From the NCBI GenBank assembly GCA_029856125.1, contig JAHQWJ010000141.1, positions 1-64,000 of the forward strand: 64,000 nt of DNA, read 5' to 3'. The notes beneath the pieces were generated by a model. It saw only the letters and a list, made by a program, of their open reading frames with translations, ran no database searches and was not told where the DNA came from. This document shows positions 1 to 47,133 of the stretch, piece by piece (positions within the stretch are counted from its first letter, which is position 1; the number at the start of each line of letters is the position of its first letter). This DNA comes from Promethearchaeia archaeon (GTDB taxonomy: Archaea > Asgardarchaeota > Lokiarchaeia > Sigyniarchaeales > SOKP01). The position numbers and the translations under genes were made by a program.

Positions 1-1065
1 CTGGTTTTCAATTGTAATCTCGAGTGGAGAAGTTTTATCCAGAAGAGGAGGTCTTAAATTTCTTATTGATGCTGTCAATGTAGCAGGAGGAGAAACCAAG
101 TTGGGTGTTATCGATTGAGTTTCATACTGAAAAATCAAATCGTTATTTAACTCGCATGTAAGCACCATGGGACCGATATTTGAATTGTCAACTTGAAAAT
201 GAGGTTTAATTTTGAATCGTAAATGAGTTTCCTCACCTAAGTCTAAAAGCAACGGGACTCTTGGTTTATTGTTTGTCGCTAAATTATCAGACAAATTTAT
301 TAAAATTTTAGTGATATTAAACTGGTTCAATTCAAACTGATAGAAAGAGTTATTTATGATTTCCACTAAATGTTTTGTATTAAATGTTAAATCTAAATTA
401 AGAATTTCATTTGTGGTATAAGTTTCTTTGTCTAATTTAAATGAGGTCGTAATGCTAAGCTTAATATGGGTTATTAATAATACCAATTTTAAGAGTTTTA
501 ATTCTGCTTCTCTAAATTTGTAATTTCCAATATTATCTTTGATTTTTTTGATGTATTTAGTTTCGTTATCTCTCAAAGCTAGAGTAATTTCCGAAACAAG
601 CTTAATCAACTGATGTTCCTTAAAAAATTCTTTATCAACCTTTTTACTAATTCTCTTTAAAAACTCCAATCCTTCGTTTGGAGTTCCTTTGACATAGGAA
701 CACATGTAAGAAAGCACGGAAAATATAACAAAATTCGAGTTTCTATCCCCTTCACTCTTGAGTTTAGGAATGAGATTTAATGCCTCCTTATAAATCGAGT
801 TTGCATCTCTATAGTTATTTGCCCATAAACAAGCTTCTCCAGATTGTCTAAATAACTCTACGCTGGTGTCAAAACGCCCAATTTCAGTAAAAATTTTTGC
901 ACTGTTCATGAAACAAACTTTAGCTTTTTCGTAATCATTTAATTTAAGCAACAAATTCCCGGCTAAATGGTAAGTTTTACCAGCTTTTTTAAATTGTTTC
1001 GCTCTATACAGTTGCTCAGCTTTTAGTATCTGTTTTTCAACAACTAGTTTTTGGTCCTTTCCCAT
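1..1065 (-). CDS. Partial (runs off window) protein with N-terminal SNAP/TPR-like helical repeats and C-terminal beta-sandwich-like region
   Basis: Not in ORF track. Open frame of 355 codons from ATG at 1065 to the window edge: MGKDQKLVVEKQILKAEQLYRAKQFKKAGKTYHLAGNLLLKLNDYEKAKVCFMNSA...; later alternating beta pattern (FKLDKETYTTNEILNLDLTF, PLEITIENQ). Confidence 0.75.
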   Translation of the reverse strand, partial: MGKDQKLVVEKQILKAEQLYRAKQFKKAGKTYHLAGNLLLKLNDYEKAKVCFMNSAKIFTEIGRFDTSVELFRQSGEACLWANNYRDANSIYKEALNLIPKLKSEGDRNSNFVIFSVLSYMCSYVKGTPNEGLEFLKRISKKVDKEFFKEHQLIKLVSEITLALRDNETKYIKKIKDNIGNYKFREAELKLLKLVLLITHIKLSITTSFKLDKETYTTNEILNLDLTFNTKHLVEIINNSFYQFELNQFNITKILINLSDNLATNNKPRVPLLLDLGEETHLRFKIKPHFQVDNSNIGPMVLTCELNNDLIFQYETQSITPNLVSPPATLTASIRNLRPPLLDKTSPLEITIENQ

Positions 1066-43043: not shown

Positions 43044-44630
43044 ATGAAAATAAGTATATTAAACGAAGTATTAGGGCCAATTCTGCATGGACCTAGTAGT
43101 TCTCATACCGCTGCTTCATATAGTATTGGTCGGTTGACCCATATGTTGTGTGAGAACGAAATAAAGGAAATTAATATTACATTTGATTCAAAGGGTTCTT
43201 TTGATAAGACATATAAATCTCAAAATGGAGATGTTGCGTTCTTAGCAGGGATCATTAATTTAGCTGTTGATGATCCTGACTTTCTTAATTCTAAAAATGT
43301 AGCCAGTGAAGAAGGAATTAGATATCTCTTCGATTCAAAAGATATTCCTGAAGCAGATCATCCAAACTATATGTTAATTAATATTCCTGCTAAAAAATTA
43401 ACAATAGTAGCGAAATCCATCGGAGGAGGTATGATTCTGATAGAAAATGTTAATAATTGGAACATTAAAATTAAAGGAAATAATTATAATATCTTAATAG
43501 AATTTCATACGAATTCTAAGGAAAAAATACTGAATTTAATTCAATCATTTTCCAATTCTCCAGAAAAAATACATATACAGGATGATGAGAGGTATTCTTT
43601 TATTCAACTAAAGAATCCAAATAGGTTTAAAGATGAATTTGTTAATAAATTAAAATCTCTTGATTTTATTTCTAATATCTGGACTACTCACCCTATACTT
43701 TTTCCGACTCATGGGACTCCGTTGTTTAAAAATAGCTTTGAGATGTTAAATCTTGCAATTGAAAAAACGTATTCTCTCGGTAAGCTAGGGCTTATGTATG
43801 AATCAGATCTATTGAATATGGATGAAAAATCTATTTTAGAAGAAATGGAAAAAAGGATTTTAGTAATGTTTTCTTCAATTGAAAAGGGTTTGGAAAAGAA
43901 AAATTCGCGTATGAAATTATTAAAGCATTCGGCAAGTAATATCCAAAAAAAAGAACCTCAGCTTTTCAGTTCTGGAATTAATTTAAGAAGCGCTTATAGG
44001 GCTATGGCAGCTATGGATACTGCTTCTTCAGGGGGATTGATTTGTGCGGCCCCTACAGGCGCATCTTGTGGCGTTATTGCTTCTGTTCTTTATACTCTCC
44101 ATTACGATTTTAATATTAACATGAATAAGATTATTAAATGTGCACTTGCAGCAGGTGTGATTGGTTTAATAAACGGAATGAATTCAACTTTTGCTGCTGA
44201 AATAGCGGGATGTCAAGTTGAGATAGGAATGGCTGGAGCAATGGCAGCGGCAGCGGTTATCGAAGTCGCTAATGGAGGTCCTGCTGCAGCCACAGAGGCG
44301 GCAGCAATTGCATTGCAAAACACAATGGGATCTGTATGCGATCTTGTTGCGGGATTCTGTGAAATCCCTTGCCATACTAGGAATGCAGTGGCAGCGTCAA
44401 ATGCATTTATCTGTGCTGATCTTATTATAGGTGGTTATATTAATCCAATAAATCTTGATGATTCAATCCAAGCATCATTTGAAAGTGGTAAGATGTTGCC
44501 TCCTCAATTACGTTGTACTTCATTAGGAGGAATCGCGATCACAGAATCAGCAAAAAAATTGGTTCAAGAAGTTAAAACAGATTATAATAAGATTAATAGA
44601 GCCAATAAGAAAAATACAAACAGAATTTAA
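43044..44630 (+). CDS. sdaA: Fe-S-dependent L-serine dehydratase, fused beta-ACT-alpha
   Basis: GPILHGPSSSHTA, SIGGG, CAAPTGASCG, AGCQVEIG, GSVCDLVAGFCEIPC, LRCTSLGGIA. Confidence 0.9.
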   Translation: MKISILNEVLGPILHGPSSSHTAASYSIGRLTHMLCENEIKEINITFDSKGSFDKTYKSQNGDVAFLAGIINLAVDDPDFLNSKNVASEEGIRYLFDSKDIPEADHPNYMLINIPAKKLTIVAKSIGGGMILIENVNNWNIKIKGNNYNILIEFHTNSKEKILNLIQSFSNSPEKIHIQDDERYSFIQLKNPNRFKDEFVNKLKSLDFISNIWTTHPILFPTHGTPLFKNSFEMLNLAIEKTYSLGKLGLMYESDLLNMDEKSILEEMEKRILVMFSSIEKGLEKKNSRMKLLKHSASNIQKKEPQLFSSGINLRSAYRAMAAMDTASSGGLICAAPTGASCGVIASVLYTLHYDFNINMNKIIKCALAAGVIGLINGMNSTFAAEIAGCQVEIGMAGAMAAAAVIEVANGGPAAATEAAAIALQNTMGSVCDLVAGFCEIPCHTRNAVAASNAFICADLIIGGYINPINLDDSIQASFESGKMLPPQLRCTSLGGIAITESAKKLVQEVKTDYNKINRANKKNTNRI

Positions 44631-44680
44631 AAAATCAAAAAATGTATAATTAAATTAAAAGTTAAGGACCATCTTAATGA
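44562..44680 (+). repeat. 119-bp direct repeat copy A: relic 3' end of an older HNH gene
   Basis: Ungapped match to 46655..46773 with about 14 mismatches by hand count; in frame with sdaA. Confidence 0.92.
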
Positions 44681-44776
44681 TAAAAAAAATTTGTTGAATA
44701 GAATAAGATTTTCGAGATTAAAGAGGTAAATTTTTTTTAATAAGAAAAATTAGATTAGTTACTTCTATTTTACTAA

Positions 44777-44875
44777 GGCCCGGTTCGTATAGACGAGTCT
44801 CGAAATTTTTTCGTGATTCGGTAAAATGGTTAGTATTGGGGACTATACTTAAGTATTCTTCAATCTCAATCTTTA
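44777..44875 (+). pseudogene. Truncated tRNA 5' half with a BHB intron at 15/16 (44793-44826) and a probable degenerate 32/33 intron
   Basis: GGCCCGGTTCGTATAG identical to 46851-46866; after the 34-nt hairpin intron it resumes TGGTTAGTATTGGGGACT. No T-arm or 3' acceptor strand follows. Confidence 0.8.
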
Positions 44876-45031
44876 AGCTGAAGATTAATGAAATTCTCTA
44901 AATTATAAAACTTATTTTTCTCTTAGTTTTTTAATCAAGTGATTTAAATCCTCCTCTTCTTAATTTTATTTTTCCCTTTAAATAGATTGTGTTTATATTG
45001 TTTTTAAAGGATGATAAAAATGTGATCGGTA

Positions 45032-46780
45032 ATGAACTTTAACTCACCCAAGTCGGAACCTAATAAAACATTTAAAAAAGTTGATACTAAGAAAGTTGAA
45101 AAAACCGAAATCGCTTCAAAACCAGGCCAGAAGCTGAGCGACAAACCAAAGAACAAAATAGAACGCCCCAAGATAGATTTACAAAAAGAACCAAGAAATA
45201 AAATTCAACGCGAAAAAATTAGCCTACTAACTCCATCAAAAAATAAGATAGAACGCCCCAAACTCGATCTAAAAACACCATCCAGAAATAAAATACAACA
45301 TCCAAAATATGACACAAAAGCTCCACCGAGACATAAAATTGAACCCCGAAGGATTAATCTTATGAAAGAACCAAAGTATAAAATACAACATCAAGAATTT
45401 AATACTAAAAAGCTTAACACAGATAAAATTCAAGTGAAACCCAGTCATAAAATAAGAAGTGAAGAGATTGGTGATAATTTAATAATTAAATCATTCCCTA
45501 AAAATACTAGAAATATTATTAGTGAAAATATCTATAAAACTTTTGAGGAAAGAAAAGCTACTTCAAATTCTAAAATAGTAGATACACTAATTAAAGATTT
45601 AGGTGATATTAAATCACAACCGAAGTGGATAAATAGATTACCAAAAGATGAATTGAAAGAATTGAGGAATTATATTGTTAATAATAAGATAGATAGTCGA
45701 TTTGAAGGTAGCTTGTCAAATTATTTTGCTGATCTTACTGATTTAGTAGAAGACATAAAAATTTTAAATAATAGAAATCAAGCCGTTAACTTTTCAGAAC
45801 TCAGTCGTAATTTAATCAAGCAAAATAGAGGATTGAATTTAACAAAAAGAGGTTTAGAAGAAGCTATTTCTGGAATTTATAACCATTTTAAGAATGTTTT
45901 TGATGATTTCAAACTTGAACGTGTAAAAAAAAAGTCTATATTAGGGACGGAATCAGAAAAGGAGTCAATACGATGCTTAAGGAAAGAATATAAATTATTA
46001 ATTGAAATGAATGATGGTAGTTATGGGGGAAAATGTTCAAATCCTAGTTGCAACACTGATTTTAAGCGATTACCTGCTTTTGATTTCCATCATGAAGAAA
46101 AAAAAATAAAAACTACTACTTGGAATGAGATCATGCATAAAAAATATGATGAAATAAAAAATACTTTAGAATCTCAAAAAGTAAAACCTATTTGTAAAAA
46201 TTGTCACTTACCTGAAAATGCTAAAATTTTCAATGATTTTAAAGAGACTATCTTGAAGAAAGATTTATTTACCTATTCAAGTCACGATATTGATAAATTT
46301 TTAAATTTAAAAGTAAATAAGTTTGTTAAAGAAAATAATACAAATTATACGGCTGCTTCGCTAAAAATTGAGGTAAAGAGATGGATTAAAAAAAGAGCCG
46401 TAATTGAACAAGTTTTTAATGGAATGTGTATCTCATGTGCAGAAAAACGACTTCCATCTTTACAAATGCACCATACTAATCAAGATCTTAAAGTTCATAG
46501 ATGGGGTGATATTTCTCGTAAATGGAATATTAAAGAATTAATCAATGATTTTGTAATTGAAGAAGAATGCGTTTGCTTATGTGGAAATTGTCACGCTATG
46601 TTAAATACAATAAACTTTGAAAAAAATGTTGGAAAAGTGCTTGGAGAAAAATATGTTCTAGAAGTTAAAGCAGATTATAATAAGATTAAAGGGGCAATCA
46701 TGAAAAATTCAAGCAGAATTAAAAAAATCAAAAAAAGTATAATTAAATTAAATGTTAAGGACCATCTTAATGAAGAATAG
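45032..46780 (+). CDS. Free-standing protein with two HNH-like zinc-finger nuclease modules and N-terminal basic repeats
   Basis: CSNPSC...FDFHH...ICKNCH and CISC...LQMHH...LCGNCH. Confidence 0.8.
   Translation: MNFNSPKSEPNKTFKKVDTKKVEKTEIASKPGQKLSDKPKNKIERPKIDLQKEPRNKIQREKISLLTPSKNKIERPKLDLKTPSRNKIQHPKYDTKAPPRHKIEPRRINLMKEPKYKIQHQEFNTKKLNTDKIQVKPSHKIRSEEIGDNLIIKSFPKNTRNIISENIYKTFEERKATSNSKIVDTLIKDLGDIKSQPKWINRLPKDELKELRNYIVNNKIDSRFEGSLSNYFADLTDLVEDIKILNNRNQAVNFSELSRNLIKQNRGLNLTKRGLEEAISGIYNHFKNVFDDFKLERVKKKSILGTESEKESIRCLRKEYKLLIEMNDGSYGGKCSNPSCNTDFKRLPAFDFHHEEKKIKTTTWNEIMHKKYDEIKNTLESQKVKPICKNCHLPENAKIFNDFKETILKKDLFTYSSHDIDKFLNLKVNKFVKENNTNYTAASLKIEVKRWIKKRAVIEQVFNGMCISCAEKRLPSLQMHHTNQDLKVHRWGDISRKWNIKELINDFVIEEECVCLCGNCHAMLNTINFEKNVGKVLGEKYVLEVKADYNKIKGAIMKNSSRIKKIKKSIIKLNVKDHLNEE
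45149..45418 (+). repeat. Six 45-nt (15-aa) tandem coding repeats
   Basis: KNKIERPKIDLQKEP/RNKIQREKISLLTPS/KNKIERPKLDLKTPS/RNKIQHPKYDTKAPP/RHKIEPRRINLMKEP/KYKIQHQEFNTKKLN. Confidence 0.85.
46655..46773 (+). repeat. 119-bp direct repeat copy B (3' end of the intact HNH gene)
   Basis: Matches 44562..44680. Confidence 0.92.
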
Positions 46781-46850
46781 CATTATTTGTTTTTTTCGAA
46801 CATTCATAAAATTTTTTTAGTGGGTAGTATTATATCATATATACTTCTAT

Positions 46851-47010
46851 GGCCCGGTTCGTATAGTGGTTAGTGGTAAGATTTTAATCTATCCAACTAA
46901 TATTGGGTACAAACTTAGTATTTCTTACTAAATTCTCCTATGTGAATCCCTAGAAGTGTAAGAATATTCTTATGGCTGGGGAAAGGCGAGTTCAATTCTC
47001 GCATCGGGCC
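46851..47010 (+). tRNA. tRNA-His(GUG) with three introns: 46874-46900 (22/23), 46911-46940 (32/33), 46954-46983 (45/46)
   Basis: Spliced 73 nt: G-GCCCGGT-TC-GTAT-AGTGGTTA-GTAT-T-GGGTA-CT-GTG-AA-TCCCT-AGAG-GCGAG-TTCAATT-CTCGC-ATCGGGC-C. G-1:C73 His identity pair; each junction folds as a bulge-helix-bulge. Confidence 0.87.
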
Positions 47011-47133
47011 CTCTTATATTTCATAAGTTCAATTTGTATGCCTTAGGGCGCCTTATTTTACAATATAAACAATAAATTAATATCTTTTAGTGAATTTTAC
47101 TCTGCAATTAAAAATAGATTATAGGCTTAGACT

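Follow-up and report, generated by a model that had tools for sequence, protein, structure and literature searches.

A tRNA-His(GUG) gene with three predicted non-canonical introns in a Promethearchaeota genome

The 64-kb stretch of DNA analysed here, which we call the window, very probably contains at 46851–47010 the only tRNA-His(GUG) gene of its genome, interrupted by three introns with BHB motifs and with a predicted spliced product of 73 nt. The gene had been proposed, with its three non-canonical introns, by a first-pass annotation made from the letters of the window; both the orthologous genes of related genomes and the ARAGORN call on the predicted spliced product bear that proposal out. 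The host genome is a 3.69-Mb MAG, 99% complete and of about 32% GC, whose names Promethearchaeota and Promethearchaeia we take to be equivalent to Lokiarchaeota, Asgard. The NCBI taxonomy places the phylum Promethearchaeota in the kingdom Promethearchaeati.

The gene is 160 nt long on the + strand, with pre-tRNA position 1 at window position 46851. Its 5' end, GGCCCGGT, and its 3' end, ATCGGGCC, form an 8-bp acceptor stem that includes G-1 opposite the discriminator C73; the G at 46851 and the C at 47010 that make up this last pair are invariant in 21 of 21 orthologues. The T-arm, GCGAG-TTCAATT-CTCGC, lies just 5' of the 3' strand of the acceptor stem, and CCA is not encoded. When pre-tRNA positions 24–50, 61–90 and 104–133 are taken out, 23 + 10 + 13 + 27 = 73 nt are left, and ARAGORN identifies this 73-mer as tRNA-His(gtg) with a normal cloverleaf, the GUG anticodon in a 7-nt loop and an 8-bp acceptor stem with G-1:C73. 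In Sprinzl numbering the introns fall at 22/23, 32/33 and 45/46, there is a 20a but no nucleotide 17, and the variable loop is 4 nt long, as it is in human nuclear tRNA-His(GTG). In eukaryotes, Thg1 adds G-1 opposite A73; unlike human tRNA-His, the gene described here has a genome-encoded G-1 that pairs with C73, which is the archaeal/bacterial arrangement. The introns (27 + 30 + 30 nt) account for 87 of the 160 nt and none lies at 37/38, in agreement with the initial description. All features of an archaeal BHB tRNA intron that were tested computationally were found. The coordinates are collected in the table.

Table. Features of the tRNA-His locus (positions are those of the window).
Feature	Position	Strand	Content and remarks
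tRNA-His 5' half, read as a fossil	44777..44843	+	exons -1..15 and 16..32; 34-nt intron at 15/16; G30
HNH-like ORF, 582 aa	45032..46780	+	3' of the fossil half and 5' of the complete gene
Promoter-like box AAAATTTTTTTA, putative BRE/TATA	46808..46819	+	ends 32 nt upstream of G-1
Exon 1, 23 nt	46851..46873	+	G-1, acceptor 5' strand, U8, C9, D-stem 5' strand, D-loop, G22
Intron 1, 27 nt	46874..46900	+	tRNA position 22/23
Exon 2, 10 nt	46901..46910	+	positions 23-32: D-stem remainder, position 26, anticodon-stem 5' strand, C32
Private T, tRNA position 30	46908..46908	+	U30.C40 in anticodon stem; T.C mismatch in central helix of intron 2
Intron 2, 30 nt	46911..46940	+	tRNA position 32/33; internal 6-bp hairpin
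Exon 3, 13 nt	46941..46953	+	U33, anticodon GUG, A37, A38, anticodon-stem 3' strand, A44, G45
Intron 3, 30 nt	46954..46983	+	tRNA position 45/46
Exon 4, 27 nt	46984..47010	+	A46, G48, T-arm, acceptor 3' strand, C73
T-rich trailer CTCTTATATTTCATAAG	47011..47027	+	conserved in close relatives (downstream 40 nt of orthologues compared)

Both flanks carry candidate signals. The box AAAATTTTTTTA recurs ~30–50 nt upstream of the tRNA-His start in 20 of 20 orthologous loci, and it probably acts as a BRE/TATA element. The trailer CTCTTATATTTCATAAG is a possible terminator.

For the predicted splice junctions, comparison with orthologous genes is the decisive evidence. A DNA search of 60 relatives yielded 20 orthologous genes, all from the same genus. 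Matches in these relatives are interrupted precisely at query positions 23/24, 91 and 134: exon 1 is matched as query 1–23/24 and exon 4 as query 134–160, while exon 2 is contiguous with exons 1 and 3 in the orthologues that have no intron. When the search was widened, matches in further genera of the family were interrupted at these positions too. The 20 congeneric orthologues have between 0 and 3 introns each, at five sites. Three of them (L021, L025 and L027) are intron-less, and their uninterrupted 73-mers match the predicted exon joins. They differ from the predicted product at 6–11 positions, mostly by compensatory changes in stems, and the two of the three that were scanned (L021 and L025) score 57–59 bits with RF00005. 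Partly interrupted genes supply intermediate states, with the 45/46 intron only (L009), introns at 22/23 and 45/46 (L010), introns at 22/23 and the canonical 37/38 (L018), a single intron at 15/16 (L016 and L017), introns at 32/33 and 45/46 (L022–L024 and L026), or introns at 15/16 and 32/33 (L028). Two genes (L006 and L007) have three introns, at 15/16, 32/33 and 45/46, and five (L002–L005 and L011) are interrupted at the same three sites as the window gene. Thus, the 73-nt product and the three junctions first predicted from the window agree with the intron-less and the partly interrupted orthologues as well as with the ARAGORN call of tRNA-His.

The introns of the orthologues were placed by splice-aware alignment to the intron-less genes, without use of the BHB motif. 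The exact pattern of a 3-nt bulge, a 4-bp helix and a 3-nt bulge was present at 38 of 41 alignment-defined introns as compared with 15 of 800 controls shifted by 3–12 nt, a difference subject to a small bias because boundaries were picked among a few equivalent slides. For all three window introns the alignment-defined boundaries are the BHB cut sites. Intron 1 is precisely missing at the 22/23 join in L009, L021, L025, L027, L022–L026 and others, and where L010 and L018 carry a different sequence at this site, AACC stands for AACT, giving G-C instead of G-U. The 32/33 site is occupied in 13 of 21 genes; the 3' strand reads CTCC, CCCT, CCCC or ACCC and still pairs with GGGG, and the central helix, which has 3/4 pairs in the window, has 4/4 in 11 of 12 orthologues. 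The 45/46 intron of L022 and L023 shows a compensatory change from CCCT/GGGG to CCTT/GAGG. Helices of the mature tRNA covary as well, the T-stem being GCGAG/CTCGC, ACGGG/CCCGT or GGGGG/CCCCC among the orthologues and the acceptor pair C3-G70 or U3-A70. Orthologues with three introns share 89–99% of exon positions with the window gene and 53–85% of intron positions, and their introns are 26–31 nt long save for one of 46 nt.

Two further observations were made on intron positions in tRNA-His. Across the orthologue set L001–L028, the 15/16 intron occurs in 5 genes and the 22/23 intron in 8, and no gene has both; competing BHB folds in the D-arm may underlie this exclusion, or it may simply reflect shared ancestry. 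In another genus, the locus L138 (G077:C14, 2990–3125) carries a homologous 45/46 intron in tRNA-His together with an insert of ~29 nt in the T-loop, which brings the intron positions of this isoacceptor in the family to six.

BHB geometry was scored with the central helix formed between the two 4-nt segments that immediately precede the 3-nt bulges. Intron 1 combines GGTT (18–21) AG↓T with AACT (45–48) AA↓T (arrows mark the cuts; numbers are pre-tRNA positions), with 4/4 central pairs, 4 outer bp and 2 inner bp. Intron 2 combines GGGT (55–58) AC↓A with CTCC (85–88) TA↓T, with 3/4 central pairs owing to a T.C mismatch, 1 outer bp and 2 inner bp; intron 3 combines CCCT (98–101) AG↓A with GGGG (128–131) AA↓A, with 4/4 central pairs, 1 outer bp and 3 inner bp. 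All helices and bulges quoted in the first-pass annotation were thus found in place, with 4, 3 and 4 central bp, the T.C of intron 2 having gone unflagged there. As a chance control, introns of the same lengths were placed across the 160 nt, and 8 of 229 such placements had 4/4 central pairs. By themselves, a BHB motif plus a cloverleaf are not decisive for the splice pattern, because chance resemblances to BHBs abound in this AT-rich DNA: when BHB-like segments were naively removed at this locus, 405 solutions were acceptable to ARAGORN.

The precursor is predicted to be strongly structured (z = -4.85). Its MFE fold contains the acceptor stem, the T-arm and the hairpin of intron 3 and lacks the BHBs of introns 1 and 2, an absence that carries little information because nearest-neighbour energies penalise paired 3-nt bulges. 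In addition, intron 1 pairs with G18–U20a of the D-loop, the CTCC of intron 2 takes the 5' strand of the anticodon stem (GGGG), and the GGGG of intron 3 takes its 3' strand (CCCT). Since introns 2 and 3 each pair with one strand of the anticodon stem, this stem would form only after both have been removed.

One base of the window gene calls for separate consideration. At tRNA position 30 the window has T, and 24 of 24 other copies have G (20 orthologues and 4 copies on metagenome contigs found by a pattern scan). Contig L136 is 99.3% identical to window 44633–46944; position 46908 is among the 16 differences, and L136 has G there. The presence of G in every other copy, including this near-identical one, marks T30 as either a SNP private to this copy or an error in the consensus, and not as a feature of the lineage. 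It could be argued from this base that the window allele is a decaying or unexpressed copy on its way to becoming a pseudogene, T30 being a real and deleterious mutation, or that the T reflects an error of sequencing or of the consensus in the MAG, given that it is found in 1 of 25 copies, strikes two functional helices at once and weakens the cloverleaf energy from -22.7 to -19.4 kcal/mol. As an account of the locus we consider this very unlikely. The gene is the sole tRNA-His gene of a 99%-complete genome, where loss of function would be lethal; the rest of it is intact, with exons 97–99% identical to those of relatives; and one U.C mismatch together with a 3/4 helix lies within the tolerance reported for loop-bearing EndA enzymes (PMC3241643, PMC5829648). 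If the base is real, the T30 allele may nevertheless be less well spliced or decoded than its G30 counterparts.

The region upstream of the three-intron gene holds a second tRNA-His sequence. The 15/16 intron of the 5' half listed in the table has a BHB with 3/4 central pairs (GTAT AG↓A ... GTAA AA↓T), and within 44777–44900 the half is followed by a degenerate 32/33 intron and then by no 3' half. The same promoter-like A/T box lies upstream of it. The 582-aa ORF between the half and the complete gene begins with Lys/Pro-rich repeats and ends in a double CxxC...HH...CxxCH region. It matches phrog_3106, an HNH endonuclease, in two stretches (PHROGs, E = 5.7e-11); a Pfam search of the ORF returned no match, and the ORF is single-copy in the genome. 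Contig L136, which is independent, shows the arrangement of fossil half, HNH ORF and complete gene as well. Two copies of a 128-bp direct repeat, at 44554–44680 and 46647–46773, are 89% identical and correspond to the 3' end of the HNH gene; the upstream copy forms the C-terminus of a serine-dehydratase-like ORF at 43044–44630. In the sister genome G003, the spacer upstream of the three-intron gene is a left/right hybrid of both repeat copies and everything between them is gone, which points to recombinational deletion.

With this arrangement in view, the functional gene might be a composite, in which the 5' half at 44777–44843 is joined to the 3' part from 46941, either across a ~2.1-kb ORF-bearing BHB intron or by trans-splicing, the local 5' part with T30 being dead. 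The GGGG-AC of the upstream half at 32/33 would indeed pair 4/4 with the CTCC at 46935–46938, the half shares the promoter-like box, and the local 5' part is damaged by T30. However, the long-range BHB (44844 to 46940) scores only (4,1,1), with 1 outer and 1 inner bp, and ~70 other pyrimidine 4-mers in the interval match or beat this site; it is unspecific because GGGG pairs with any C/U tetramer. Known split tRNA halves are held together by extended complementarity, and between these two halves none was seen beyond a few flanking pairs. Furthermore, L136 has the same arrangement and yet carries G30 downstream, hence an intact downstream gene; G003 lacks the upstream half and the HNH gene and has kept only the three-intron gene; and a second 5' half is present in 0 of 19 other orthologous loci. 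We therefore regard a composite gene as highly improbable and, on the grounds of the weak long-range BHB, the intact gene of L136 and the deletion in G003, treat the upstream half as a fossil, with the downstream three-intron gene as the predicted functional unit.

In four lineages from two genera, close HNH orthologues (65–78% identity) lie ~70–100 nt upstream of tRNA-His, and orthologues are directly upstream of tRNA-His in G015, in G077 (another genus) and on contig L135. For more distant HNH paralogues, a tRNA gene or tRNA-like T-arm lies within 1.5 kb of 6 of 27 loci, against a chance expectation of about 4% that assumes ~46 tRNA genes in 3.7 Mb, itself an estimate and not a tool count. 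The order in the window is an HNH 3' remnant, the tRNA-His 5' half with its 15/16 intron, the intact HNH gene and the complete tRNA-His with its 22/23 intron. It is conceivable, though we hold it doubtful, that an HNH cassette carrying a tRNA-His 5' part re-invaded near 32/33 and displaced the resident half, thereby swapping a 15/16 for a 22/23 intron. The linkage of HNH genes to tRNA loci, the recurrence of the arrangement in L136 and its recombinational deletion in G003 are hints in this direction; the tandem arrangement is equally compatible with plain local duplication or with an integrated element. If such a re-invasion did take place, the HNH cassette would be one concrete route of arrival for Asgard tRNA introns, a matter left open by a recent preprint (10.64898/2026.10.13.758758). 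The adjacent HNH gene and the displaced half-gene could thus bear on how introns arrive.

A different splice pattern, in which intron 1 would start at the first of the two AGTGGT repeats, at pre-tRNA position 17, or the introns would be fewer and longer, deserves almost no weight: the direct repeat AGTGGT(T/A) at pre-tRNA 15–21 and 22–28 does offer an alternative 5' site and ARAGORN accepts many alternative BHB-like solutions, but these alternatives remove G18 G19 or other universally kept nucleotides, GTGGTTAG is intact in orthologues without intron 1, and at all three introns the cut sites of the BHBs coincide with the boundaries drawn by alignment.

The host has candidate enzymes for the three-intron pattern. 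Two genes with a tRNA-intron endonuclease domain (PF01974) are present in the genome, at G000 C135:58699–58923 and C56:19911–20159, and their products, each about 200 aa long, are EndA paralogues. In a 171-residue alignment with the catalytic alpha subunit of the Aeropyrum pernix heterotetramer, the first retains the catalytic His (GPGLEH) as well as K-P-R, equivalent to K44/R46 in the crenarchaeal-specific loop. The second shares 30% identity with the first and carries Ser where the catalytic His would be, so it looks like a structural beta subunit. The pair is consistent with an (alpha-beta)2 enzyme with a full-length beta subunit. The crenarchaeal-specific loop confers cleavage at non-canonical positions (PMC3241643), and (alpha-beta)2 EndA with an L1 loop has been reported in Asgard archaea (PMC5829648). 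RtcB (PF01139) is also present in the genome, which by sequence therefore encodes a predicted splicing endonuclease for non-canonical sites and an RNA ligase.

From the anatomy of the gene we infer the following course of transcription, cleavage and ligation, including the order of events. The conserved A/T box about 32–43 nt upstream would drive transcription of a ~160-nt precursor, in which the last nucleotides of each intron would pair with the four exon nucleotides before its own 5' splice site, giving three BHB motifs; introns 2 and 3 would do so by mimicking the opposite strand of the anticodon stem. A heterotetramer-type endonuclease, composed of the catalytic alpha subunit with its K-P-R loop and the His-less beta-like paralogue, would cut within the 3-nt bulges. 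Six cuts by EndA and three ligations by RtcB would join the exons of 23, 10, 13 and 27 nt. RNase P would leave the encoded G-1 opposite C73, and CCA would be added later. With the anticodon-stem strands sequestered and exons down to 10 nt, the precursor would make a demanding test substrate for the Asgard (alpha-beta)2 endonuclease.

Standard tools do not find the gene, as had been anticipated for default finders. ARAGORN reported 0 tRNA genes in the 64-kb window and still missed the tRNA-His gene when run in intron mode on the whole genome, and Rfam gave no match to the gene at the gathering threshold; at a relaxed threshold the T-arm alone was matched, as a 17-nt fragment. The genome's sole tRNA-His gene is thus invisible to standard finders, which matters for annotation. 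Across the 99%-complete genome just 28–29 tRNAs were detected, about half of them with an intron, and ARAGORN found no tRNA for His, Asp, Asn, Tyr, Trp or Phe. The lack of ARAGORN calls for six amino acids in so complete a MAG implies that the tRNA completeness of such genomes is underestimated, and several further multi-intron tRNA genes are probably hidden in this one. A SPLITS-like census of the whole genome, in which T-arm plus acceptor seeds were sought (44 seed loci), BHB removals enumerated and the products filtered with ARAGORN, was too permissive, with 830,573 candidates and many isotypes per locus, and yields no usable count of hidden tRNAs. A second candidate for tRNA-His was not found in the genome. 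A third match to the 5'-exon pattern, at C132:4373–4388, was examined and is not a tRNA.

Multi-intron tRNAs are already known in Asgard archaea, and the tRNA-His gene fits that picture fully. They reach an extreme in Atabeyarchaeia and Freyarchaeia (2024, PMC11291895), and an analysis of 90 Asgard genomes described many introns, especially in the D-arm, that tRNAscan-SE misses, that sit at BHB motifs and that have been gained repeatedly (preprint 10.64898/2026.10.13.758758). As in these published cases, the gene described here has multiple non-canonical BHB introns, its D-arm intron escapes standard finders, and the presence of introns varies among close relatives, so that introns must have been gained or lost more than once; the deciding method, comparison with compact relatives, is also that of the Asgard census. 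In contrast to the published Asgard cases, the host here is a Promethearchaeota (Lokiarchaeota-type) MAG, and the Loki-type names that were looked for are absent from the main text of the preprint. Unlike the census, the present comparison traces one isoacceptor through 21 congeners, which carry 0–3 introns at five sites. A single isoacceptor in a single genus thus shows all states between no intron and three, and the tRNA-His set illustrates, on a small scale that can be checked, the recurrent gain and loss described for tRNA introns of Asgard archaea.

Multi-intron tRNAs have also been described in Thermoproteales (Sugahara 2008 and Fujishima 2010, as cited in PMC4090602 and preprint 10.64898/2026.10.13.758758). 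The first-pass annotation called triple-intron tRNAs rare and best described in this order; multi-intron tRNAs are no longer best described there only, since such genes have been published for Asgard archaea (PMC11291895; 10.64898/2026.10.13.758758). As relayed in the citing papers, the tRNAs of Thermoproteales resemble the gene described here in having up to three non-canonical BHB introns, the D-arm and the variable region included, and they are processed by an (alpha-beta)2 EndA with the crenarchaeal-specific loop, to which the EndA pair of our host is predicted to be alike. According to the same accounts, related intron sequences recur in different tRNA genes of Thermoproteales through transposition. 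Unlike these, the three introns have no detectable copy elsewhere in their genome: a blastn-type search of it with the 160-nt gene returned only the gene itself and the upstream half, and the next match had E = 0.28. The AT-rich, mesophile-type Asgard host, of about 32% GC, also differs from the hyperthermophile Thermoproteales.

A parallel for intron 1 is the pre-tRNA-Thr of Aeropyrum pernix, whose D-loop BHB intron is cleaved by APE-EndA (PMC3241643). Both have a strict D-loop BHB intron requiring a loop-bearing alpha subunit, and the host alpha paralogue has the loop K-P-R and the catalytic His as in A. pernix, the Asgard enzyme being known from its sequence. Unlike the A. pernix precursor, that of tRNA-His would carry three BHBs within 160 nt, with exons as short as 10 nt. 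Finally, the likeness of the D-arm to eukaryotic tRNA-His, noted in the first-pass annotation, proved to be exact over 17 nt: TCGTATAGTGGTTAGTA, tRNA positions 8–24, which spans the join of exons 1 and 2, is identical to human nuclear tRNA-His(GTG), the 5' halves of which are listed in PMC6935952.
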